Source of the DNA: an uncultured Gammaproteobacteria bacterium
GTDB lineage: Bacteria; Patescibacteriota; Microgenomatia; Daviesbacterales; UBA10151
Direction: 5' to 3'
DNA: 64,000 bases
Assembly (NCBI GenBank): GCA_964649615.1
Contig: CAZYPW010000001.1
Coordinates: forward strand, 33,557-97,556
The position numbers and the translations under genes were made by a program. Positions within the stretch are counted from its first letter, which is position 1; every line of letters starts with the position of its first letter. Under the pieces are notes generated by a model, which made no database searches, had not been told where the DNA came from, and was given only the letters and a program-made list of their open reading frames with translations. Shown here piece after piece: positions 2,654-54,572 of this stretch.

Positions 2654-3025
2654 ATGGCAGAAGTAACGAATTTGACAAATCGTAAGGTTTGTTATAATAT
2701 TAGAGATATGTTAAACACAAACATTGTTTCTATAGATGAACTTCGTTCTAACCTGGCTGATATTATCAACCGCGTAACATATGCTAATGATAAGGTAGTG
2801 GTTAAAAAGTACAACCGGGAAGCAGCTGTTCTTATCAGTTTGGATGAATACGAAAAGCTTTTGGATCCTAGGAAGAGGTTAAGCAAGACTGCATGGGAAA
2901 AAAGTTTCAAAAAACTTGATAAAATACGAGCTAGAATCCCTAAAATGGACCCAGTAGAATTAGATAAAATTATTGATGAGGAGGTGGAAGTGGTTAGGGC
3001 AGAGAAAAGGGCTAGAGGTGAATGA
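2654..3025 (+). CDS. Phd/YefM-family antitoxin.
   Basis: N-terminal IVSIDELRSNLADIINRV...VVVKKYNREAAVLISLDEYEKLL matches the Phd/YefM fold. It overlaps the downstream PIN gene by 4 nt (ATGA). Confidence 0.65.
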   Translation: MAEVTNLTNRKVCYNIRDMLNTNIVSIDELRSNLADIINRVTYANDKVVVKKYNREAAVLISLDEYEKLLDPRKRLSKTAWEKSFKKLDKIRARIPKMDPVELDKIIDEEVEVVRAEKRARGE

Positions 3026-3450
3026 TTCGAACAGTATTAGACACGAATACTTTAGTTAGCGCTGTTATCAACATTGGATCGTCTGTAGCTGCTGAGATTT
3101 ATCAAAATTGCAAAGATAATCACTTTGTACTGGTAATTTCTCCACAAATTTTGTCAGAGCTTGATGAAGTTTTGCATCGAGAAAAAGTGATAAAAGCCCA
3201 CAAAAGATCTGATAAAGAGTTACAGGAGATAATGAACGGATTATCCAGAGTCAGTTTATCTGTCACCGGTAATTTTAGAATAGAAGTAGTAAGAGATCCA
3301 TCAGATGATAAAATTCTTTCAGCAGCGCTTGAAGGGAAAGCTGATTATATTGTCAGTAGAGATAGAGATTTACTTGACCTTAATCAATACCAAGGGATTA
3401 AAATTATCACCCCCGAAGAATTTATGGGAATTCTTAGAGCAAATAAATAA
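3022..3450 (+). CDS. PIN-domain toxin (VapC-like).
   Basis: VLDTNTLVSAVIN...DDKILSAALEGKADYIVSRDRDLL carries PIN acidic-residue motifs. It is translationally coupled to the upstream antitoxin. Confidence 0.7.
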   Translation: MIRTVLDTNTLVSAVINIGSSVAAEIYQNCKDNHFVLVISPQILSELDEVLHREKVIKAHKRSDKELQEIMNGLSRVSLSVTGNFRIEVVRDPSDDKILSAALEGKADYIVSRDRDLLDLNQYQGIKIITPEEFMGILRANK

Positions 3451-7392: not shown

Positions 7393-9174
7393 TTAAGGCG
7401 ATTTTCTTTTCCACTTAAGAGGATTCCAGGGTGAAGCACTTCGATCTATGAATGTTCCTATACCGGGTTTCGTAGGACCATATTCGAATCCTCCAGTGCC
7501 AGGGTTAAGATAGTATCCCTTCTCTCCAAAAATATTCTGTTTAAACATTCCCCCTTGGCCACGAATAGCACCTGCTCCTTGTTCATAGTATCCTCTACCA
7601 CCCCTGATACCTCCTGATACTTCCTGTCCAATTAATTGTCCTGCCTGGCCCATTTTACCAATAGCGCTGACAATTATATCCGGAATTTTAGGCAATGCCA
7701 TTAAAGCTCCAAAAGCCAGTAAAATCTTAATAAATCCTAAATCTAAACCTCCAAACAAAGGGAAAGCAGTACCCTCTACAATATTAATTTTATCTGCGGC
7801 ATATACCGCTGGGACAAAGCTACTTTCTTCCATCTGGTTTGATTGAGTTACTTTAAGGGGGCCACCATAATCCTGACCCATTAAAAAGGCTACGAAATAA
7901 AATACAGCTAAAACAGCAGGAAATACTAAGATATTAGCAAGCAGCTTCAGCATCCAGCCGGTAGCAATGCTCTGCCTGCCTGGTAAAGCAGCTGCTAAAA
8001 AATGAAAAGGGGCACTAATTGTTAGGAAAATAATTGTTAAATAACTAGCGAGTAAACGCAAAAGCAGTTTTAACATCTGATATATTAGGGCAAAGGTGGC
8101 GATAAAACTTAACATCAATCCTACCCATGTGGTAGGAAAAGTAGCCACTGTTACCCCAGCAACTAGATTTATTAAAGGACTGGCAATCAGCCCATAAGGA
8201 GGAGGGATAGCTCCTGACAAGGGACTGATAAGTTGAGCACTAATAAAACCTGCCAGCAGCCTGATATAAAATTGAGTTTCACCGTTCATTTTCTCTAGGA
8301 TAGCGCCTAAGGCTTTAGAGGCATCATCCCAGGTAATGATATTTAGGAAGGGGCTAAAAATACTCAACATACTCTCAACAGAGATATGTTGTACTAGGTT
8401 TGTTCTTTGGGGATCATCTAGCTCATTTTGAGCAGCAGCAAAGAAATAACCCACAGCATTTGTGCCTATAAAAGCCGTATCTGAGATAGCTGCTGCCATA
8501 AAGTAACTGAATGTGATAAGGATCAGACCAAGTACTAATCCTGGTAATGCAGCCTGTGCTGTGATTACAGTTTGAGGATTAATTCTATTTCTAAACATTA
8601 CCATTAACCCAATAACTACAAAGATAATCACCATAATTAAGTAAGCTATATTTCTTGACACTTCCCAAAGTCTCAATACTGGATCTAAAACCCTAGCTGC
8701 TGATCCTACTACTTGAGCATTAACGGGTTTTACTATGCCAAATCCCTTTCCCACATAAGCTATATAATTGACTGTTCTAACAGGAGGATTGGTATACAAA
8801 GCAGTAATTAAGGAAGTTGTTGAACCTAATACCCCTCCTGATAAATCAACTTGGGATAAAACCGGTACCCCGGAAACATAAGTTAAACAAGGCTGGCCAA
8901 TTACAGATTGGCCAATCCCTAAACAAGAAAAAGTATGAAACATATTATGGATTAAAAGATCAGTGTAGATGGGAGAGGTGGGGGAGATGGTAGATGGTAG
9001 ATGGTAGTTGGTAGTTGGTAGTGGAGAAGCAGAAGGGGTAGATGTCTGAGCATGGATAGGAGTAGCATAAAGCGTAAAAGTTAAAAGGCAAAAGGTAAAA
9101 GTCAAAAATGCAAGTAAAAAGTAAAAAGTTTTTAGAAATTTTGAATTTTGAATTGTAATTTTGACATTTGACAT
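7393..9174 (-). CDS. Polytopic membrane protein; VirB6/TrbL/CedA-like candidate channel component.
   Basis: N-terminal signal peptide, then a ~130-aa exported segment, at least 6 TM helices, and a Gly-rich C-terminal tail. It sits directly adjacent to the tandem pilin-like genes. Confidence 0.4.
   Translation of the reverse strand: MSNVKITIQNSKFLKTFYFLLAFLTFTFCLLTFTLYATPIHAQTSTPSASPLPTTNYHLPSTISPTSPIYTDLLIHNMFHTFSCLGIGQSVIGQPCLTYVSGVPVLSQVDLSGGVLGSTTSLITALYTNPPVRTVNYIAYVGKGFGIVKPVNAQVVGSAARVLDPVLRLWEVSRNIAYLIMVIIFVVIGLMVMFRNRINPQTVITAQAALPGLVLGLILITFSYFMAAAISDTAFIGTNAVGYFFAAAQNELDDPQRTNLVQHISVESMLSIFSPFLNIITWDDASKALGAILEKMNGETQFYIRLLAGFISAQLISPLSGAIPPPYGLIASPLINLVAGVTVATFPTTWVGLMLSFIATFALIYQMLKLLLRLLASYLTIIFLTISAPFHFLAAALPGRQSIATGWMLKLLANILVFPAVLAVFYFVAFLMGQDYGGPLKVTQSNQMEESSFVPAVYAADKINIVEGTAFPLFGGLDLGFIKILLAFGALMALPKIPDIIVSAIGKMGQAGQLIGQEVSGGIRGGRGYYEQGAGAIRGQGGMFKQNIFGEKGYYLNPGTGGFEYGPTKPGIGTFIDRSASPWNPLKWKRKSP
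9089..9163. repeat. Left arm of a ~75-nt inverted repeat; encodes KITIQNSKFLKTFYFLLAFLTF in the 593-aa membrane protein.
   Basis: Its reverse complement is nearly identical to 13915-13990. Confidence 0.85.
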
Positions 9175-9229
9175 TTGAATTTTGACCTTTCTTCCTAAGA
9201 TTAAACCAAAACTTAAATACTTTCAAGTT

Positions 9230-9538: not shown

Positions 9539-9589
9539 ATATCTAAAGTAACACTATATCAAATACGATGGTATATATAAATTAATTAA

Positions 9590-10455: not shown

Positions 10456-10843
10456 TTAATCTTAACCCAGTTATACCAAACAATCTAGCAAGTAAAAATT
10501 GTAAAATCAAAAATGAGAGCATTAACAATATAAAGCCAATTAAAGAATGGATAATCATTTGTTTGGCGCTTTCAATATCTTCTTTATTTGCCCCAGCCTT
10601 CATGTATTTAAAAGCTGCTATTAGAAAATAAATCACCACCAATACTGTAGCTATTGAGAAGATAGCAGGAACCAGCCTTGTTGTCCCCTCGCCTAAAGTG
10701 GTAATATCCCTAAAACCAAAATCTTTACCCAAATCTATTGGATCTGGAGCTTGTGCAGAAGCATAAGGAGTGTAAAGTGTAAAAGTTAAAGTGTAAAGTG
10801 CTATTATAGTTTTTACTTTTAAGTTTTTACTTTTAAGTTTCAT
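10448..10843 (-). CDS. VirB2/TrbC-like pilin paralog.
   Basis: Signal peptide followed by ...LIAAFKYMKAGANKEDIESAKQMIIHSLIGF, with the same two-TM architecture. Confidence 0.5.
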   Translation of the reverse strand: MKLKSKNLKVKTIIALYTLTFTLYTPYASAQAPDPIDLGKDFGFRDITTLGEGTTRLVPAIFSIATVLVVIYFLIAAFKYMKAGANKEDIESAKQMIIHSLIGFILLMLSFLILQFLLARLFGITGLRLIG

Positions 10844-11179: not shown

Positions 11180-11234
11180 GATTCAATTATAGCTTAAAGC
11201 TTAGAACGTAAAGTGTAAAGTTACAGTTTAAAAC

Positions 11235-11603
11235 TTAAAGTTTCCTTTTCCCTTTTAAAGTAAGTAAGCTTGCTCCTAAAATATTTGCAAGTTCTTTCGT
11301 TTCTGTTAGTAAAATATTAACTTCGTTTTTATCAGTATTGGTTCCATCTCGTAATATTCCAAGCCAGTACTTAGTTTCATTAGCACTCTTAAGGGCAATA
11401 GCATAAAAATTAATGAAATCTTTCTTGCTTGATGCAGCTTGTGCCTCAATAATATTGGCTCCTATAGAGGTAGCAGCTCTTAATAGCTGATCAGATATTA
11501 CCCAGAAAATTCTTTCATTAGGTAACTTAGTCACAAATTGCACTATCCTAATGGAAAAAGTATATGCCCGGTACTTTAGTTGTTCCTTGTTATTGTTATT
11601 CAC
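11235..11603 (-). CDS. Four-helix-bundle protein (23S rRNA intervening-sequence protein family).
   Basis: YRAYTFSIRIVQFVTKLP...ISDQLLRAATSIGANIIEAQAASSKKDFINFYAIALKSANETKYWL is the characteristic sequence of this family. Confidence 0.7.
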   Translation of the reverse strand: MNNNNKEQLKYRAYTFSIRIVQFVTKLPNERIFWVISDQLLRAATSIGANIIEAQAASSKKDFINFYAIALKSANETKYWLGILRDGTNTDKNEVNILLTETKELANILGASLLTLKGKRKL

Positions 11604-11666
11604 AGATTTAACTTTTTAGTTGTAGTTTTGCGCTTTAAGTTTTACGTTTTACACTTAAATCCCTAT

Positions 11667-12815
11667 TTATTTACAGCTATCAAATCCTGGTATGCACAGT
11701 ATATCAACCCCAATAATTTTTAAAAGTAAGGTAGCAAAGATTACAAACAAAAGCCCAATGATAGCTGAGGTAAACCTATCCCTGCCACCCTCCAATCTCT
11801 CTGGGTTACCAGCAGATGAGATCATCTGAAATGCACCTACAAGCATCAGTAAAAAGGCAAATCCACCAGAGATAGCTACCAGAAATGTTAAAAGATCTTT
11901 GATAAAACTAATCGGGTTGGTGTGGATACAACCAATAGCTGTGGCAATTGCTGGATCTTCATCAGTTCCACACGGTTTTGCTCCTGCTAGGGTACATTTA
12001 CTGGGGTCGGTACAGTGAGGGGTTATAGGTGCGCCAGGAACCACAGGAGCAATAGAGGCAGAAGGGTTTGGTGTAGACGGAGTTGTGGCTGTGGCACTAA
12101 TTTGGATTGGCCAAAAACACTGATGAAGCGGAGCAAGCTTATAAATTCGCAGATTATATTTATACCCAATCTCTCTTGATAAAGTTAAGTTTGTAAAAGC
12201 ACCCTGACCTGTGCTGCCGGTCTCAGTAGAAGCCAAATCAGGATCTCTTCGGCTACTTACATTAAAATCTTGAATTTTATATTCAGTGTTAGCCAATCCT
12301 AAGAATTTGATATCAAACGGAGTATTTGGTTGAATTGTACTTGGGGGTGGAGGAGATAAACCTATTGTACATCCTCCGGTAGCCCCTATCTGGTAGGAAA
12401 TTTGCGAGCAGAAATCTTGATAGTCACCACTTGCATTAGGTTGCCAATACAATTCTCCTGTGAATTTTCCAGCTTCAATAAGAGAGTTTGTTCTAAAACC
12501 CAATTCACTCCCCCTAATAGTTAAAGAAAATTTATTACCTGAAACAGTTACAGATTGTGTATCATAATCTCCAAGATGAGCGTACCACGCACTGAAGTGT
12601 AAACTAACTGATTTACCATTTAAGAGTGCTAACGTAGCTGGATCATTGATTGTAAAATTAAAAGTTAAATCAGTTGTACCTTCTGGAAAATATTTAGGAT
12701 CATAAGTAATGTTAACAGTGGGTGCAGCGCAACTATCTGAAGCTTGCACAACTGGTATGAATGTGTTGAAGAGAGTCAAAAGACCAATAATTCCAAAGAT
12801 AAAAAGTCTGGACAT
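11667..12815 (-). CDS. Secreted 382-aa protein with a large N-terminal extracellular domain and a C-terminal pilin-like two-TM domain; candidate tip or adhesin pilin.
   Basis: Signal peptide. The C-terminal 70 aa (LLMLVGAFQMISSAGNPERLEGGRDRFTSAIIGLLFV) is homologous to the small pilin paralogs. Confidence 0.5.
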   Translation of the reverse strand: MSRLFIFGIIGLLTLFNTFIPVVQASDSCAAPTVNITYDPKYFPEGTTDLTFNFTINDPATLALLNGKSVSLHFSAWYAHLGDYDTQSVTVSGNKFSLTIRGSELGFRTNSLIEAGKFTGELYWQPNASGDYQDFCSQISYQIGATGGCTIGLSPPPPSTIQPNTPFDIKFLGLANTEYKIQDFNVSSRRDPDLASTETGSTGQGAFTNLTLSREIGYKYNLRIYKLAPLHQCFWPIQISATATTPSTPNPSASIAPVVPGAPITPHCTDPSKCTLAGAKPCGTDEDPAIATAIGCIHTNPISFIKDLLTFLVAISGGFAFLLMLVGAFQMISSAGNPERLEGGRDRFTSAIIGLLFVIFATLLLKIIGVDILCIPGFDSCK

Positions 12816-12848
12816 TATCCAAAGCTTAGCATAAGTAGGGCTAAAATG
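12810..12848. repeat. 39-nt direct repeat, copy 1 (GGACATTATCCAAAGCTTAGCATAAGTAGGGCTAAAATG). It overlaps the start codon and 5' region of the 382-aa pilin-domain gene.
   Basis: Matches 13858-13896 with 38 of 39 nt identical. Confidence 0.8.
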
Positions 12849-12897
12849 ATATCCTTCGGCAGGCTCAGGACAGGCAATTTTGAGCTAGGTTTTGGGA

Positions 12898-13587
12898 TTA
12901 GGATTTAGTTTTATGGTTAGGCTTGATTTTTAATAACAGATTGCGCGAAAGATTCTGATAAAATTGTATGAAAGCTTTTTTATCAAAAGCAGCTTTCATT
13001 TTTGGCAGGGTTTGCATTTTATCTGCATCTGCAATTACATTTGCGAAATAAAATTCCGATAAACCAGTATCTTTTTGCTTTGCCAATTGAAAGATTTTAT
13101 TAAATGATAATTCTGTTTGTATACAAATCATATAAAGATCAATATAATCCTTAGGCTCCAGCCGTCCGAAGACTGCAAGTACCTTATTTGTCGCAATATT
13201 AATAAGTGAATCAATCCTGATGCTGTCAATGGTTTGTATCTTGCCAAAATGTTTAGGTTGTTCTTGAACAATGTCGATTTTTTGCATCCAGCCCTCTTTT
13301 TTATTCTCCAGAAAGATCTCATTATATGTTTGAGAACGGATATGAATTGTTAGTTTAGAATTTGTTTGGCTGGCAATTTCCTGCATAGTAGTACGGAGAG
13401 TAAGGGTATCAAACGGCTCCAGGCTAAAAAAATCTAAATCCTGGCTTTCACGGTGAGCGAGATAAAAAGCCGAAAGAGCAGTACCACCTGTCAGGAAAAA
13501 AGGTCTGGCAAATGGTGAGGAAAAGAATTTTAACAAAAGCGTTGTTTGATGTGGGTATAGGATCTGGTTGTTTTGTAACCTATACAT
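12898..13587 (-). CDS. AbiEii-type nucleotidyltransferase toxin (DUF1814).
   Basis: Motif FFLTGGTALSAFYLAHRESQDLDFF. The start is assigned to the MYRLQ ATG at 13587 so that it does not overlap the upstream small gene. Confidence 0.65.
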   Translation of the reverse strand: MYRLQNNQILYPHQTTLLLKFFSSPFARPFFLTGGTALSAFYLAHRESQDLDFFSLEPFDTLTLRTTMQEIASQTNSKLTIHIRSQTYNEIFLENKKEGWMQKIDIVQEQPKHFGKIQTIDSIRIDSLINIATNKVLAVFGRLEPKDYIDLYMICIQTELSFNKIFQLAKQKDTGLSEFYFANVIADADKMQTLPKMKAAFDKKAFIQFYQNLSRNLLLKIKPNHKTKS

Positions 13588-13870
13588 GGTAGCCCCAAAC
13601 ATTAAGCGCCCGTTGCCATGCCCGTTTAATATTGATTGGTAAACGTAATTTTGGGAAGATTTTAACAATATCATTTACTGTAAGATATCTCCATATATCT
13701 TTAAATTGCGCATGGGTTAATATCCGTGCTACCAGCCAGGATTTTTCCGTAGTATTCTTGCTATGTAAAATATTTCGTACTTGTTTTTTATTAAGATCAT
13801 AATCCCAAAGAAAATATAGTTTATTCATGGTTAAATAATACCACAATTTGTCATTTTGGACATTATCCAA
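13580..13870 (-). CDS. Small protein encoded immediately upstream of AbiEii; candidate cognate antitoxin or partner.
   Basis: Operon-like tandem arrangement: its stop is 5 nt upstream of the AbiEii start. No domain recognised. Confidence 0.35.
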   Translation of the reverse strand: MDNVQNDKLWYYLTMNKLYFLWDYDLNKKQVRNILHSKNTTEKSWLVARILTHAQFKDIWRYLTVNDIVKIFPKLRLPINIKRAWQRALNVWGYHV

Positions 13871-13896
13871 AGCTTAGCATGAGTAGGGCTAAAATG
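13858..13896. repeat. 39-nt direct repeat, copy 2.
   Basis: See copy 1. It lies in the divergent region between the 96-aa gene and the SpoIID-like gene. Confidence 0.8.
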
Positions 13897-13903
13897 GTAC
13901 AAT

Positions 13904-15658
13904 TTGGAGACCATGTTTCACTGCAAAATTACAATTCAAAATTCAAAATTTCTAAAAACTTTTTACTTTTTACTTGCATTTTTGACTTTTATTTTTTGCC
14001 TTTTAACTTTGCCTGTCTATGCTGATGAGCTTGAAGATATTAAAAACCAAATTAATGAGCTAAATCATGCCAGGGAATTATCTGTTTCTGCCACCAAGCC
14101 CTTGGAAGGGCAACTGGAGGGCTTACAAAGGCAGCTAGCCCAAATTCAAGCCAGTTTAGACCATATAGCTTTAACTATTGCCCAAAAGCAAAAAGAGCTG
14201 GATTTAAGGGAAGATAAACTAGCCCTGCAGCAAGCCCTTTTAGAAAAAAGAGTTAAAGCCTACTATATCCGCTCATATCTCTCAGATCCACTGGTGGTGA
14301 TTTTATCCTCATTCCAATCAGGAGATTTATTTAGGGAATTGTCTTACCGCCAGACTGTGGCCAGGGAAGATAAACAAGTCATCTCCTCCATTACCAGCCA
14401 GGTGGTGGATTTATTAAATCAAAAAGAAAAATTAGAACAAGATAAAGCTAAACTGGCTTCTTTGCAAGCAGAGGTAGACAAAAATGCGAAGTTTTTGGGA
14501 GGGGAGGTTAAAAAGGCCAAGACTTATCAGGAAGAGCTTTCCTCTAAAATTGCCCAACTTTCTGCCCGCCAGCAACAAATTATCTCTCAAAGGCAAGCCT
14601 CCTTAAACTTGCCTACCTCTTTGGGAGCAGGACCACTCTTTTGTACTGATGATAGAAAGCTGGACCCGGGATTTTCTCCAGCTTTTGCTTTTTTTACTTT
14701 TGGCATTCCTCATCGGGTGGGGATGAATCAATATGGAGCTTTGGGTAGGTCTCAAGCAGGCCAATCTGCAGAGCAGATTTTGCAGGCCTATTTCCAAGAC
14801 TTTTCCTTTGAGCAAAGGCCAAATATCAATATTTCTGTCCAAGGTTTTGGTTCTATGCCTTTGGAAACTTATTTATTAGGCATTTATGAGATGCCAGATT
14901 CCTGGCCAATAGAGGCTTTAAAAGCTCAAGCTATTGCTGCCCGCTCCTATGCCCTTTCCTACACTAACAATGGTTCTAAAGAAATTTGTACTACTCAAGC
15001 CTGCCAGGTTTATAAAGGAGGCAATAAGGGAGGGAATTGGGAAAATGCAGTCAAACAAACTGAGGGTAAAACCATGGTTTCAGGAGGTTCTGCTGTTTCT
15101 GCCTGGTATTCTTCAACTGATGGAGGATATACCTATTCATCTTCAGACGTGGGTTGGAGTTCCCGCTCTTTTACTAAAAGGGTCAGAGATACCAGTGGAG
15201 ATATATCCTCATTTGAGGATCTTTTTAGCAAAAGTTATGATAAAGATTCACCTTGTTTTTATGCAGCCCAAGGTTTTAGGCCTCAATATGCCAAGAGTGC
15301 TTGGTTGAAGAGTGAAGAAGTTTCAGATATTGCTAATGTAATCATGCTTTCCAAAAGAGATAGTTCTGTTTCATCCCATATCTATCAAACAGATAAACCA
15401 AATCCAGAGGGGACTGAGACTTGGAATGAAGATAAAGCCAAACAAGAATTAAGGAATAAAGGGGGTTCACCATTTAACAGTGTTTCAGCAGTTTCTGTGG
15501 GGGTAGATTTTTCCTCAGGACAGGTAACTTCTGTAACTGTGTCTGGAGATAGAGGGCCAGAGACCTTTAACGCTACAGAATTTAGAAACTTTTTTAACCT
15601 TAGGGCTCCAGCTAATATTCAAATTGTAGGACCGTTGTTTAATATAGAAAAAAAATAA
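13904..15658 (+). CDS. Secreted coiled-coil protein with a C-terminal SpoIID/LytB domain (a peptidoglycan lytic-transglycosylase-type hydrolase).
   Basis: Signal peptide, then ~200 aa of heptad-rich sequence. The C-terminal domain reads IEALKAQAIAARSYALSY...CTTQACQVYKGG...AWYSSTDGGYT (SpoIID/LytB signature). Confidence 0.7.
   Translation: METMFHCKITIQNSKFLKTFYFLLAFLTFIFCLLTLPVYADELEDIKNQINELNHARELSVSATKPLEGQLEGLQRQLAQIQASLDHIALTIAQKQKELDLREDKLALQQALLEKRVKAYYIRSYLSDPLVVILSSFQSGDLFRELSYRQTVAREDKQVISSITSQVVDLLNQKEKLEQDKAKLASLQAEVDKNAKFLGGEVKKAKTYQEELSSKIAQLSARQQQIISQRQASLNLPTSLGAGPLFCTDDRKLDPGFSPAFAFFTFGIPHRVGMNQYGALGRSQAGQSAEQILQAYFQDFSFEQRPNINISVQGFGSMPLETYLLGIYEMPDSWPIEALKAQAIAARSYALSYTNNGSKEICTTQACQVYKGGNKGGNWENAVKQTEGKTMVSGGSAVSAWYSSTDGGYTYSSSDVGWSSRSFTKRVRDTSGDISSFEDLFSKSYDKDSPCFYAAQGFRPQYAKSAWLKSEEVSDIANVIMLSKRDSSVSSHIYQTDKPNPEGTETWNEDKAKQELRNKGGSPFNSVSAVSVGVDFSSGQVTSVTVSGDRGPETFNATEFRNFFNLRAPANIQIVGPLFNIEKK
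13915..13990. repeat. Right arm of the inverted repeat; encodes the same signal-peptide residues in the SpoIID-like protein.
   Basis: See the left arm. Confidence 0.85.
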
Positions 15659-15694
15659 AGTTAAAAGTCAAAAGTTAAAACTCAAAAGTGTGGT

Positions 15695-15722
15695 AGTTCT
15701 GCCCTGCAGAACTTTTTAATTT
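15695..15722 (+). terminator. Rho-independent terminator (AGTTCTGC-CCT-GCAGAACT stem followed by TTTTTAATTTT).
   Basis: Perfect 8-bp stem followed by a T-tract, directly after the stop at 15658. Confidence 0.6.
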
Positions 15723-15748
15723 TAAATTGTAATTTTGAGTTTTGCATT

Positions 15749-16339
15749 TTGAGTTTTGAAATCAAAAAGAGTATACTCCTTTTTGCCATGTTTCCTTCTT
15801 ATGTAGAAAATCCAGAGAATTGCTCATTTGAAGGCCAGGATCCCCAAGAAAAAATACTGCTTCTTTTAAGGGCTCATCCAATAACTAATTTAAGCTGGAT
15901 TATTCCCGCGATATTACTCTTTTTCCTGCCTTTTGTGATAGGTTTAGCTTTGAGCTTTTTTTCTATTCCCCCAAATATTATTCCAGAGCCTTTTGGGCTG
16001 GTTTTTTTGCTATTTAATTTTTTACTAATCATGTCCATTGTTTTTGAAGGTTTTTTATATTGGTATTTTAATGTGTATATAGTAACTAATAAAAATATTA
16101 TTGATATAGATTTTCACTCCATTCTTTACAAAAACATTGATGTTGCCCCTCTGCGCAACATAGAAGATACCCAATCCTCTATGATAGGGATACTGCATTC
16201 TATTTTTCACTATGGCCATGTTTATATCCAAACTGCAGGAGCAGCCAGAAATATAGATTTAGTTGATGTGCCCAGACCCCATCATGTGGCTGATTTTATC
16301 TTGGATGAATCACATAAAATTTATGGAAATATCCAGTAG
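15749..16339 (+). CDS. Membrane-anchored bacterial PH-domain protein (bPH_2/DUF304-like).
   Basis: Two TM helices, then a segment matching the YdbS/YdbT-type PH domain pattern (...YIVTNKNIIDIDFHSILYKNID...IQTAGAARNIDLVDV). Confidence 0.5.
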   Translation: MSFEIKKSILLFAMFPSYVENPENCSFEGQDPQEKILLLLRAHPITNLSWIIPAILLFFLPFVIGLALSFFSIPPNIIPEPFGLVFLLFNFLLIMSIVFEGFLYWYFNVYIVTNKNIIDIDFHSILYKNIDVAPLRNIEDTQSSMIGILHSIFHYGHVYIQTAGAARNIDLVDVPRPHHVADFILDESHKIYGNIQ

Positions 16340-16630: not shown

Positions 16631-18496
16631 ATGCAATTAAAAGTAGCTCAGGTGGTAGGTTTAAATACAGATCAAAAAGCTGCCCAAGTTTTATCTATTA
16701 TTTCAGATAAGGATAATGCTTTCTTTGCCCTCTTAACCTTAGAGTGTGATGATGCTTTTACCAGGGGCAGGCAGACTTTATCTGAGCTTTCTGATTTATA
16801 TTTTGAGGGTAATTCTTCCCAAAAATTATCTGAAGTGCTAAAGGCCTTGCAGGAGAAGTTAAAAGATGTTTCAAACTTTGATTTTATATTAGCTTCTTTA
16901 TCAGGAAAAGTGCTTTACCTTTTGGGCAAAGGCAATGTAGAGGTTTATTTAAAAAGGGATGGGAAAACCTCACAGCTTTTATCAGTAGGTCCCCCCACAG
17001 ATTTGATTTCCGGTTTACTGCAGCCAGAGGACAGGGTTTTATTTGCCACTAAAAATTTAACTGCCTTTTTAGCAGATGATTTGTTATCTGCTTTAGTTCT
17101 GCCACTGGAAAGCTTTGAGGAAGAGATTTCTAATAGAATTTTGGGTGGAAGTTTTGAAGAGAATGGATTATCTGGTTTATTAATTGAAGTTAAGCAAGAT
17201 CAGGATAAAGTTAATATCCCCCAGCTCTCTGAAGAGGCTTCAGAGGCTCAAATTACTTCAGAAAGTGCCAGTAATTTACCTAAAAAAGTTAATTTGGAAA
17301 AGATTGTTCAAAATTCTAAGGGTGGGATCATCTGGGCAGTTGTTCATATTAAAAAATTTATCCCTAAAACCAATAAAGGCAGATTAATCTTAGCAGTTAT
17401 ACTAATAATAATTATTTTTGCAGGGGCCTTTTTACAATTTCAATCAAGCCAGAATAAACAAAAAGAGGAGCAGTTTAACCAGTTGTTGCAGTCAGCTAAA
17501 TCCGATTTTGAGGCAGCTAAAGGTTTGGCTTCCCTAAACCCTTCCGAGGCCAAAACAAAGCTAGATTCTGCCAAAGATAATATTAATAAAGCCTTATCTA
17601 TAAAGCCCAAAGATAGCCAAGCTTTAGAATTTAAAAATCAATTGGAGGGAGAGTCCTCCTCAATACTGCAGCAATTTACAGCCACTGGCTTTCCCTTATT
17701 CTTGGATTTAGATTTGATTAAGAAAGGCTTTAGCGCCCAAAGCATGAGTTTATCTGGAAAACAGTTATTGCTGTTAGATGCCAGCAGTAAAACTTTAGTT
17801 GCCCTAGATTTAGATAAAAAAAGCAACCAGGTTTTAGCAGGGGAAAGCCAACTGGGCCAGGCCGAAATTGCATCTTTGAATGGAAGCTTAGGTTTTGTTT
17901 ATTCTGAGGATAAGGGCATTGTCAGAATTGATTTAACCAATCAAAAAGAAGCCACTGTGGCCAAAGCAGATGAAGAGTGGGGGAAAATTGTGGATATTTC
18001 AGGTTTTGCCAGCAATGTTTATTTGCTGGATACTCTCAAAGGACAGATTTGGAAATATTTGCCTGTCCGCAATGCTTCGCAAAGCGATGCAGGCGGGTCA
18101 ACTCAGGATGGGTATTCTGATAAAAGAGAGTATTTAACTGCTCCATTTGATTTAGCAAATTCCATCAGAATGCAGATTGAATCCTCTATTTATGTCTTAC
18201 AAAGAGATGGAGCAATGTTAAGGTTTACCAGGGGGGCAAAGGACCATTTTTCCTATGGAGGTTTAGACAAAGGAGTTTTAAACCCTAAGAGTTTTTTTGT
18301 CTCCTCTGATACAGATAATTTGTATCTGCTAGATTCTGGAAATTCCAGGCTTTTAATTTTAACCAAAACTGGAGAGTATAAAGGCCAAATTAACGGGGAT
18401 AAGTTTGCTCAAGTTTCAGATTTAGTGGTAGATGAAAAAGAAAAAAAAGTCTATCTTTTGGAAGGATCAAAGATTTATACTGTGGATCTAAGGTGA
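16631..18496 (+). CDS. Single-pass membrane protein with an N-terminal cytoplasmic domain, one TM, and a C-terminal extracellular beta-propeller-like repeat domain.
   Basis: TM helix around aa 240-262. The C-terminus has repeated YLLDSGNSRLLIL, VYLLDTLKGQIWKY and VYLLEGSKIYTV motifs typical of NHL/YVTN-type blades. Confidence 0.45.
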   Translation: MQLKVAQVVGLNTDQKAAQVLSIISDKDNAFFALLTLECDDAFTRGRQTLSELSDLYFEGNSSQKLSEVLKALQEKLKDVSNFDFILASLSGKVLYLLGKGNVEVYLKRDGKTSQLLSVGPPTDLISGLLQPEDRVLFATKNLTAFLADDLLSALVLPLESFEEEISNRILGGSFEENGLSGLLIEVKQDQDKVNIPQLSEEASEAQITSESASNLPKKVNLEKIVQNSKGGIIWAVVHIKKFIPKTNKGRLILAVILIIIIFAGAFLQFQSSQNKQKEEQFNQLLQSAKSDFEAAKGLASLNPSEAKTKLDSAKDNINKALSIKPKDSQALEFKNQLEGESSSILQQFTATGFPLFLDLDLIKKGFSAQSMSLSGKQLLLLDASSKTLVALDLDKKSNQVLAGESQLGQAEIASLNGSLGFVYSEDKGIVRIDLTNQKEATVAKADEEWGKIVDISGFASNVYLLDTLKGQIWKYLPVRNASQSDAGGSTQDGYSDKREYLTAPFDLANSIRMQIESSIYVLQRDGAMLRFTRGAKDHFSYGGLDKGVLNPKSFFVSSDTDNLYLLDSGNSRLLILTKTGEYKGQINGDKFAQVSDLVVDEKEKKVYLLEGSKIYTVDLR

Positions 18497-18933
18497 AAAT
18501 AGTCAACAAAAAGGCCCTACATAATTATCACATTTTAGAATCTTTGGAGGCAGGCATAGTGCTTTCTGGTTCAGAAGTCAAATCCATTAGGGCAGGCAGG
18601 ATAGATTTATCCCAGGCCCATGCCAGAATTTTAAATGGGGAAGCATTTTTACTGAATGCCAATATTGCCAGGTTTGCCCAAAGCAGTGAGCAAACCTATG
18701 ACGGCACAAAATCCAGAAAATTATTAATTCACAGAAGTCAGATTGACCAATTAGTAGGTAAAACCTCCGGTAAGAATGCTACCTTAATACCAATTTCTAT
18801 TTATGAAAAAAATAATAAGTTTAAAGTACAAATTGGCCTAGCTAAGCCTAAAAAAGAGTTTGATAAGCGCAGAGTAGTAAAGGAACGTGATCATAATCGT
18901 AGAATACAGCAAGAGCTTAGAGGAAAAGAATGA
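18493..18933 (+). CDS. smpB: SsrA-binding protein SmpB.
   Basis: HNYHILESLEAGIVLSGSEVKSIRAG...LLIHRSQIDQL...KERDHNRR is a canonical SmpB sequence. Confidence 0.95.
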   Translation: MKIVNKKALHNYHILESLEAGIVLSGSEVKSIRAGRIDLSQAHARILNGEAFLLNANIARFAQSSEQTYDGTKSRKLLIHRSQIDQLVGKTSGKNATLIPISIYEKNNKFKVQIGLAKPKKEFDKRRVVKERDHNRRIQQELRGKE

Positions 18934-18937
18934 ATAT

Positions 18938-18969
18938 TTGCTTTTAGGCTCAGAATATGGTAATATAAT
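18938..18969 (+). promoter_or_regulatory. Sigma70-like promoter for ssrA: TTGCTT, 17-nt spacer, TAATAT(AAT).
   Basis: Read from the sequence. The -10 element ends about 8 nt before the tmRNA 5' GGGG. Confidence 0.4.
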
Positions 18970-18974
18970 GCAAT

Positions 18975-19382
18975 GGGGATGTATAGTCTCGACAGGTTAG
19001 CACTTTAAAAACTGCAAGTCGTTAAGGCAAAATTAAACGTTAAATATTTTTGCAAAACACAAACGGCAAGAATATTGCTCGTTCCCTCGCAGGTCAAGTG
19101 CAGGGCCTAATGGCTTTGCGCGGCCAAGGCAGCTTTGCTGCTTTAGCAGCCTAACAGGGTACTTTAGAATATATTCTCTTTCTGGCGGGATACTAAGGTA
19201 AGTACAAAGCCAGGATGCTGTTAATACAATTTTGATCGATCAGTATTAACAAAAGAAAGTTTGGTCATTCAGTAGTTTTCCTGCTAATTGGTTACAACTG
19301 CTGAATAAAAATTAATTAGCTAAACTTGTAGAAGTTTTTAAATTAATAGCTTGCACTCGGCTCACAGCCGACATCTCCACCA
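18975..19382 (+). ncRNA. ssrA: tmRNA (SsrA).
   Basis: 5' GGGGATG pairs with 3' CATCTCC-ACCA to give a 7-bp acceptor stem with the G3:U70 wobble. A TCGAC box follows. An internal ORF ends ...FAALAA-TAA. It lies directly downstream of smpB and is followed by a terminator. Confidence 0.8.
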
Positions 19383-36327: not shown

Positions 36328-36379
36328 CCTTCACCCCCTGCTGGATCGGTAATTTTCTCTCTGTTATACTCGCAGTAAT

Positions 36380-38897: not shown

Positions 38898-39002
38898 TCA
38901 GCAGATGTTACCACATTTTTAGATTCTAACTTCTTACAAACCCAGCAGGGTCTAAGGTAGAAAGTTTATTATAAAGACTTACTACAACTTGTTCATTTAT
39001 CA

Positions 39003-39042: not shown

Positions 39043-39304
39043 CGCGTGGATTCGAACCACGAACCTTGATCTTACAAGTGCTCCTAATTTACATCAGGAC
39101 TTGGACTATCTCATAACCTTAGCTTTCTTTAGGTTCCGGGCGTATAGTCTCTGAACCTTCCCCGATTTCATCGGGGCTTGGCTGCGGATTATCCTTCGAT
39201 TACACTCAGGACTTCCCGACAATTAACCCAGTTTTTCAACTCCGATTTCTCGGAGAAGCTGCAATATTTTACAGGATCCCGCTCTACCATTGAGCTACAG
39301 GGGA
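39034..39304 (-). tRNA. tRNA-Asn (GUU) interrupted by a 196-nt group I intron in the anticodon loop. Exon 1 is 39271-39304 and exon 2 (with CCA) is 39034-39074.
   Basis: Joined exons: TCCCCTGTAGCTCAATGGTAGAGCGGGATCCTGT|TAAGATCAAGGTTCGTGGTTCGAATCCACGCGGGGGAGCCA. This closely resembles E. coli tRNA-Asn, with anticodon loop CTGTTAA. Confidence 0.75.
39075..39270 (-). other. Group I intron (196 nt, no ORF).
   Basis: The 5' exon ends in U and pairs with the internal guide GCAG, giving a U-G wobble at the splice site. A P2 hairpin CTCCGA-GAAA-TCGGAG is present. Conserved R element GTTCAGAGACTATA and S element GAGATAGTCC form P7. The intron ends in G. Confidence 0.75.
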
Positions 39305-44406: not shown

Positions 44407-44545
44407 ATATACACCGTAACATATATGGTGTATATAGTCAAATATATTGAAATTAGGTACAAACTTTGATGCCCGTCTCGCCAAAGGCGGACGAGGCGAG
44501 CAGAAGAGTACTTGGAAAATTTAAAATAAGTGTTAATATATATAA

Positions 44546-45929: not shown

Positions 45930-45990
45930 GCTTGGAGTATATTACCAATCCACTTCTCAGGACAAGTCTGTGTGTGAGATAATACTTAAT

Positions 45991-54553: not shown

Positions 54554-54572
54554 GGAATGGTATAGTTAAATT

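Follow-up and report, generated by a model that had tools for sequence, protein, structure and literature searches.

A short gap between a pilin-domain gene and a divergently oriented SpoIID/LytB-domain gene is a conserved, recurrent hotspot for toxin–antitoxin (TA) cassettes, with variable cargo between conserved flanks. We describe this site in a 64,000-nucleotide (nt) stretch of contig CAZYPW010000001.1 (positions 33,557 to 97,556; hereafter the window, meaning the whole stretch analysed) from a genome of Candidatus Daviesbacteria (Microgenomates, in the candidate phyla radiation, CPR), where an AbiEii-type cassette lies between two direct copies of a 39-nt repeat that we call T. The reading that we favour, with moderate confidence, is that the gap is a long-standing hotspot that has accumulated small TA cassettes, with T duplicated around them, and that the window holds one such cassette.

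The repeat, of the form GGACATTATCCAAAGCTTAGCAT(A/G)AGTAGGGCTAAAATG, occurs at 12810–12848 (copy 1) and 13858–13896 (copy 2), with 38 of 39 positions identical, exactly where the first-pass annotation of this DNA had placed it. Not one such pair arose in 100 dinucleotide-preserving shuffles with three mismatches tolerated, so none is expected by chance, and an independent 4.8-kb Logan assembly (L001) shows both copies around the same genes in the same arrangement. The exact stretches within the repeat measure 23 and 15 nt, below the usual assembly k-mers, which makes a k-mer mis-join unlikely. T has just these two sites in all 64 kb, and we therefore rejected the notion that it is a genome-wide promoter consensus. 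The repeat can be extended without gaps to 66 nt (82% identity), but the extension is probably no part of the duplication, as its distal match (9 of 10 positions) is the cassette's own −10 box.

On the minus strand, T (CATTTTAGCCCTACT(T/C)ATGCTAAGCTTTGGATAATGTCC) comprises an extended −10 box (TG-C-TAAGCT), 7 nt and an ATG. In copy 1 the box, TGCTAAGCT, lies at 12823–12831 (minus strand), 7 nt ahead of the near-leaderless ATG (12813–12815) of the pilin-domain gene, a 382-residue open reading frame (ORF; 11667–12815, minus strand). The copy contains this start codon, as the first-pass annotation stated, whereas the 5′ region also claimed for it shrinks to six coding bases in total, the remainder being upstream sequence. 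Copy 2 has the same promoter core, with its extended −10 box at 13871–13879, and its ATG opens an ORF of just 10 codons. On the plus strand, the T core AGCTTAGCA supplies TTAGCA, the −35 box of the SpoIID gene (13913–15658, plus strand), at 13874–13879 in copy 2, and this box overlaps the pilin −10 box TGCTAAGCT within T. A promoter scan predicts the SpoIID promoter at 13874–13903 (plus strand), with this −35 box, an 18-nt spacer and a TG-extended −10 TACAAT (box 13895–13903), followed 9 nt on by the ATG; the 39-nt repeat extends from the second codon of the pilin gene to the TG of this −10 box. Judged by consensus, T is probably the shared core of a compact back-to-back promoter for the pilin and SpoIID genes, and the earlier proposal that the repeat duplicates a promoter and a start codon agrees with the extended −10 box, ATG and −35 box that can be read in it. 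The n of TGnTAAGCT is C or G depending on the species, but TG and TAAnnT are constant, a pattern that one would expect of a promoter. Furthermore, TGnTAnnnT boxes stand 6–10 nt before the ATG at many long-ORF starts of the window (for example 36362–36370, 44531–44539, 54558–54566, 45939–45947, 38905–38913 and 9545–9553), so that the near-leaderless extended −10 architecture appears typical of this organism and suggests that near-leaderless transcripts from such promoters may be common in it.

Searching species-representative genomes with SpoIID as the query protein, we obtained 52 Microgenomates loci, the closest (69–81% identity) from Candidatus Daviesbacteria, and the pairing of a pilin gene on the minus strand with SpoIID on the plus strand is found at nearly all of them (about 50). 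The pilin-domain protein of the window combines a variable N-terminal part with a C-terminal T4SS_pilin domain (PF18895, E=9.6e-8), and its gene heads a row of five smaller pilin-like genes, with PF18895 matches of E=6e-9 and 2e-8 in small paralogues and further paralogues in L001. The conserved neighbours comprise the pilin-like genes, a gene for a 593-residue membrane protein, SpoIID, a bPH_2-domain gene and a 621-residue gene. Empty sites with one T were found in L010 (GGACATTACCTTCAGCTTAGCACAATTGGTGGGGAAATGGTACAATT...ATG), L084, L094, L100 and L101, and also in the more diverged L013 and L052; in this layout the T lies between two start codons less than 100 nt apart, in line with the expectation of the first-pass annotation that an empty site would carry a single copy. 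None of the 52 species representatives carries the AbiEii cassette, and since relatives have empty sites, the two TA genes of the window are an insert between a conserved pair.

In many species the gap holds one to four other TA cassettes instead, which lie on either strand and have their own promoters. The occupants include DUF433 with DUF5615 (L003), PIN with MazE (L004), HicB with HicA (L005, L014, L090), BrnT with BrnA (L006, L012), PIN with VapB together with a RelE-like pair (L008), PIN with Phd together with a YafQ pair (L016) and DUF4143 ATPases (L007, L009, L092), with up to four cassettes in L078. A literature search, judged by titles and abstracts, turned up no description of a TA hotspot in Patescibacteria.

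Arrays of T accompany these cassettes. An nhmmer search with a T profile gave 99 matches in 51 sequences, all 99 on one strand relative to SpoIID, and 15 of 38 non-redundant loci hold two or three strong copies spaced by 279–1397 nt. There are three copies in L008 and L090, three and a partial one in L005, three strong copies with weaker core matches in L086, two of 59 nt in L016 and three of 84 nt in L012, two of which are 99% identical; the repeat measures 39 nt in the window and 26–84 nt in other arrays. In every array whose contig includes the pilin gene, the ATG of the pilin-proximal T opens a long ORF (about 300–500 residues), and the other copies mostly open ORFs of 4–24 codons. Copies within a genome share a variable spacer that differs between genomes (the window, L016, L092, L012 and L103), and T copies thus appear to have been homogenised or re-duplicated within each genome.

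Many T copies contain two GCTTAsCAyAA cores split by a palindrome, CCACAAyTA-N6-16-TArTTGTGG (L004:7080–7125, L016:6065–6100, L012:512–560, L008:2048–2090, L069:151–185), the arms of which keep their complementarity across a C:G to T:A exchange (CAACTA/TAGTTG versus CAATTA/TAATTG). The T copies of the window lack this palindrome, which may function as an operator, as an insulating hairpin or as a structure for recombination.

The insert between the T copies of the window measures 1,009 nt, and all genes in it are on the minus strand. It contains only two genes, both of the TA module, as the first-pass annotation had it. The duplicated ATG of copy 2 starts a mini-ORF (MSKMTNCGII*, 13831–13863, minus strand) that stops 2 nt before the ATG of the first gene, and 6 nt before this same ATG lies the cassette's own extended −10 box, TGGTATTAT (13835–13843, minus strand), the position of which is kept in L055, L060, L056 and L074. 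Because it carries this conserved box, the cassette is independent of the duplicated promoter. The first gene (13580–13828, minus strand) encodes an all-helical protein of 82 residues, a candidate antitoxin, and the second (12898–13587, minus strand) encodes an AbiEii/DUF1814 nucleotidyltransferase toxin of 229 residues, identified by Pfam, PADLOC and its motifs; the toxin start and the partner stop overlap in ATGTATAG at 13580–13587, and a tail of 49 nt (12849–12897) separates the toxin stop codon from T copy 1. The same gene order and overlap, with the antitoxin candidate gene upstream, recur at other loci that retain the toxin. The partner and toxin lengths given in the first-pass annotation, 96 and 258 residues, are the longest possible readings, the former starting at a TTG in the repeat. 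As homologues have 81–82 and 225–230 residues, respectively, we place the partner start at ATG 13828, and the toxin most likely starts at ATG 13587.

No intrinsic terminator was detected in the 49-nt tail or the region, no Rfam family matched in the region, and no terminal inverted repeats of the 1,009-nt insert were found. There is no recombinase or transposase gene within about 12 kb, and no integrase among the ORFs from 1075 to 24796. A transposon or insertion-sequence origin was rejected, given the lack of a transposase and of terminal inverted repeats and a duplication length that is not fixed.

The assignment of the larger protein to the DUF1814 nucleotidyltransferases, made from motifs in the first-pass annotation, is borne out by PF08843 (E=7.4e-14, 52.7 bits against a cutoff of 22.5) and by matches to 18 PADLOC AbiEii models, and the motifs GGTAL...ESQDLDF, KIDIV and NKVLAVFGRLEPKDYIDLY, which represent the family signatures hG[GS], DxD, h[DE]h and K..A...R..D..D, are intact. 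Its nearest solved relative by sequence is the Helicobacter pylori DUF1814 protein JHP933 (4o8s, E=1.4e-3), in an alignment that covers the GG...DLDF and K..A...R..D..DL motifs. MenT/AbiEii toxins share four nucleotidyltransferase motifs, and the unrelated antitoxins MenA1 and AbiEi-like MenA3 neutralise them by inducing toxin auto-phosphorylation on a Ser/Thr that adjoins the catalytic Asp, T39 and D41 in MenT1 (PMC11375011). In the ESQDLD motif of the present toxin, a Ser stands two residues before the first Asp of DLD, which is the T39/D41 spacing of MenT1; this Ser is thus, by position, a candidate acceptor.

The partner has no match in Pfam, NCBIfam or PADLOC. Its model, built with 58 homologues, consists of five helices at a mean predicted confidence (pLDDT) of 94, and a profile search of the PDB found nothing, with no likeness in sequence or fold to any solved chain, MenA1 (8AN5) included. 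The absence of matches in all four resources and the five-helix model argue against an AbiEi-like protein, and the AbiEi-like fold that the first-pass annotation had suggested looking for was rejected, there being no AbiEi Pfam match, no winged helix and no structural match. Its 74 close homologues mostly have 81–82 residues, and every locus examined, with the exception of L103 and its deleted toxin gene, has the partner homologue immediately upstream of an AbiEii gene. In a library of representative proteins, the partner domain is also fused N-terminally to AbiEii (P0108, 339 residues; P0147, 311 residues). The wider family (E<=1e-3) falls into 485 clusters at 50% identity. Among its members are forms of about 140 residues with an N-terminal extension that is ribbon-helix-helix-like by eye, and proteins of about 1,200–1,330 residues (P0168, P0186, P0187, P0194 and others) in which the domain forms the extreme C-terminus, and which have no Pfam domains except for one weak nSTAND NTPase match. 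The sequences point to an undescribed family with a strong link to the AbiEii toxin, and DNA-binding autoregulation by the short form of the partner is unlikely.

Two further loci hold variants of this module. An 88%-identical partner homologue in L103 (979–1260) is followed by just nine remaining codons of its AbiEii gene, which makes it an orphan antitoxin candidate, in a three-cassette array with the order DUF433/DUF5615, T, partner, antitoxin/YafQ, T, pilin. In L073 (583–989), the hotspot holds an AbiEii-like gene (41% identity) in the opposite orientation, and the partner encoded ahead of it is a different one, of 69 residues (MYNWSVDENYLKKFPKQYRLWKLEQLL...), which may be a further antitoxin variant.

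Elsewhere in CPR genomes, members of the cassette family follow RNase J (L056–58, L060), a tyrosine-recombinase gene (L063) or a Peptidase_M23 gene (L066), lie among type IV pilin-like genes (L065) or stand in other settings (L059, L067, L104, L105). DNA homology between the cassette loci runs from the cassette's −10 box to the toxin stop codon, with no conserved ends. At the hotspot, the junction between T and the cassette is identical in the window, L103 and L074, with 13 nt between the cassette −10 box and TGGACAT; the mini-ORF is also the same in L103, and its spacing in L074, and their cassette DNA is 87% and 67% identical to that of the window, respectively. A junction common to cassettes of 67–87% identity means that the insertion is old or moves as a unit, so that the near-identity of the T copies need not imply a recent target-site duplication. 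In L055, the closest genome to have this cassette in the same gap, nucleotide identity is 81% for the cassette and 69–76% for the flanking genes, and the divergence of the HicBA and RelE-like cassettes roughly matches that of SpoIID. Most simply, the cassettes would be old residents that were inherited and differentially lost; alternatively, T and the cassette move as a unit.

In the hotspot model that we favour, any insert would part one of the flanking genes from the shared promoter core, and the arrangements that persist would be those in which T is duplicated. Copy 2 would keep the −35 box of SpoIID and also read into the cassette, and copy 1 would keep the −10 box, transcription start and ATG of the pilin gene. 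The co-oriented T copies probably act as homology for the gain, loss and exchange of cassettes, and recombination between direct repeats would leave one T, that is, an empty site. Duplication and turnover could proceed by homologous recombination between T copies, by homology-anchored insertion or through an undiscovered recombinase. Going by what is known of its family, the toxin would halt translation by adding nucleotides to the acceptor ends of tRNAs. The partner would counteract it through direct binding or induced auto-phosphorylation, as in MenAT and AbiE, and the pair would act as an abortive-infection or addiction module.

Several observations weigh against this model. Some cassette borders lack T: in L078, two strong T copies and a weak one accompany four cassettes. 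The similarity of T copies at variable positions is 0.53 within and 0.44 between genomes, a marginal difference (p=0.05), and the arrays of L008, L071 and L072 have diverged copies. The cassette of L055 lacks the upstream T, for which secondary loss must be assumed, and in L060 a quite different local sequence is duplicated around the cassette, as in a general target-duplicating insertion in which nothing is special about T. Promoter activity, transcription starts and leaderless translation are read from consensus. Finally, the species of the window yielded no strain with an empty site: exact look-ups of the pilin protein gave only cassette-bearing contigs, and the empty-site allele of this strain had no match in metagenomes of the Joint Genome Institute.

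A more far-reaching form of the model, which we put forward only tentatively, regards T as the working part of a CPR cassette platform without an integrase, in which recombination between co-oriented T copies would capture TA and defence cassettes, stack them, exchange them and delete them. With each capture, the platform would automatically re-supply leaderless promoters to the cassette and to both essential neighbours, and gene conversion would keep the copies alike. The 82-residue protein would then found a new antitoxin or adaptor family for DUF1814 toxins, which also serves as the C-terminal module of the proteins of about 1,300 residues, one with the weak STAND-NTPase match.

A recent one-off insertion of the 1,009-nt cassette into a single T, with the 39-nt duplication as its direct footprint, seems unlikely to us. 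Such an event, for which homology-facilitated illegitimate recombination and the integration of a circularised fragment by a single crossover are possible routes, would explain why the T copies match at 38 of 39 positions and why no species representative carries the cassette; the range of duplication lengths (26–84 nt) also resembles recombination and not an enzyme with a fixed stagger. A parallel is seen in L060, where the cassette is flanked by two direct copies of 63 nt from the RNase J 3′ end, 87% identical (2303–2365 and 3319–3381), the second copy keeping its own stop codon and downstream hairpin, like a leftover of the recipient's gene end. Among the other members of the cassette family, no flanking direct repeats were found in L055, L056/58, L059, L063, L065 or L067. 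Together, L060 and the window indicate that insertion with local duplication happened at least twice in the family, at different sequences, which fits homology-anchored or single-crossover integration and not a specific attachment (att) site. However, the junction shared with L103 and L074, down to the 13-nt distance to TGGACAT and the mini-ORF, speaks against a recent event, as independent insertions would not hit the same base, and so does the cassette of L055, the divergence of which is near that of its flanking genes. The first-pass annotation had proposed the insertion of a cassette by duplication of a target or promoter; the promoter is indeed duplicated, but a single recent event is at odds with the shared junction, and a one-off event with the duplication of the same motif around other TA cassettes in many Daviesbacteria.

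It is less likely still that T is the attachment site of an Xer-type or integron-like tyrosine recombinase of the host, with its gene elsewhere in the genome, and that integron-like arrays arise as cassettes are excised in circles with one T each and re-inserted at T. Two to four co-oriented T copies do separate unrelated cassettes at intervals of about one cassette length, the AbiEii T/cassette junctions are conserved, and the HicA stop codon lies within a few nt of T in L005, L014, L090, L073 and L088. The conserved blocks TTGGACATTA and AGCTTAGCACAA also exceed the needs of a −10 box, and many T copies contain the palindrome with its compensatory change. Against this, the conserved neighbourhood, like the surrounding 12 kb, includes no recombinase, the cassettes lie in either orientation with promoters of their own, and some adjacent cassettes (L078) have no T between them. 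Moreover, the same cassette is elsewhere flanked by a different duplication (L060) or by none, the repeat length varies, and two overlapping promoters together with the conserved MSK N-terminus explain the conservation of T. Chance similarity or an assembly artefact, such as a mis-join of strain variants or a common consensus, is very improbable: although the organism uses TGnTAnnnT boxes near many start codons, the shuffles, the two sites in 64 kb, the independent assembly and the like arrangement in dozens of independent metagenome-assembled genomes and contigs all argue against it.

The module and its setting resemble several known systems in part. AbiE (AbiEi/AbiEii) is a type IV TA and abortive infection system of Streptococcus agalactiae and Lactococcus (Dy et al. 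2014, PMC3985639). Like AbiE, the present cassette is bicistronic, with the antitoxin gene first and an overlapping DUF1814 toxin gene with nucleotidyltransferase motifs; unlike AbiEi (COG5340), in which an N-terminal winged helix-turn-helix is joined to a C-terminal domain, the 82-residue partner is a single helical domain without a winged-helix DNA-binding domain. In MenAT1 of Mycobacterium tuberculosis, the DUF1814 toxin MenT1 is paired with a small unrelated antitoxin, MenA1 (PMC11375011, PMC10435456). The likeness to MenAT1 lies in a DUF1814 toxin accompanied by a short helical antitoxin candidate that lacks a DNA-binding domain, but no likeness of the partner to MenA1 was detected in sequence or fold.

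As in integron arrays (chromosomal superintegrons), a fixed site holds short unrelated cassettes, many of them TA modules, with a recurring co-oriented sequence and a platform promoter. Unlike in integrons, there is no IntI integrase beside the array and there are no attC-type sites; the cassettes have their own promoters and either orientation, and the recurring unit is a promoter with a start codon, which some borders lack. The pdif modules of Acinetobacter plasmids are likewise small, often TA pairs, bounded by short sites and shuffled without mobility genes of their own; pdif sites bind XerC/XerD and alternate in orientation on plasmids, whereas T copies are direct, chromosomal and, by their sequence, probably promoters in function. 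The site also resembles the TA and defence hotspots of core genomes in its conserved flanks, variable content and empty sites, but it is a divergent promoter of about 45–100 nt, not a tRNA or integrase-associated site, and its occupancy goes with promoter duplication.

CPR bacteria, or Patescibacteria, have tiny genomes with few recognisable mobile elements, and both the acquisition and the turnover of their defence genes are poorly understood. At the present locus, one divergent promoter of about 50 nt between two conserved envelope genes is the landing site for many TA families, and the link between occupancy and promoter duplication gives a testable model of cassette turnover without a dedicated recombinase. 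For an uncultured phylum, the locus further offers a natural collection of leaderless promoter predictions. AbiEii/MenT-type toxins are members of one of the commonest phage-defence families, and the 82-residue partner family widens the diversity of antitoxin candidates for them.

Other features of the window were noted in passing. Gene borders of the locus consist of degenerate low-complexity DNA with a 7-nt period (units such as TAAAAGT, AGTTTTA, CAAAATT and AAAGTCA), at 9075–9185, 10769–10840, 11187–11240, 11614–11652, 13924–14010 and 15657–15760. This DNA is partly translated, giving near-identical N-termini (KITIQNSKFLKTFYFLLAFLTF) in the 593-residue protein and SpoIID, and it forms inverted repeats that bracket SpoIID (13924–14010 versus 15650–15737). 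Among the pilin-like genes lies a gene for a 23S rRNA-intervening-sequence (four-helix-bundle) protein (11235–11603); relatives differ in whether and where the same locus has a homologue of it (L004, L005, L009, L095). The nearest extra element is a second TA pair at 2654–3450, a Phd/YefM antitoxin with a PIN_3 toxin, upstream of a gene for a 1,257-residue protein without a Pfam domain. A cobalamin riboswitch (867–1043) precedes the gene for a 487-residue protein, also without a Pfam domain, and the SmpB gene is directly followed by the transfer-messenger RNA gene (18493–19382). On the minus strand, 39082–39280 is a group I catalytic intron (Rfam RF00028, 92 bits), in a stretch without a long ORF.

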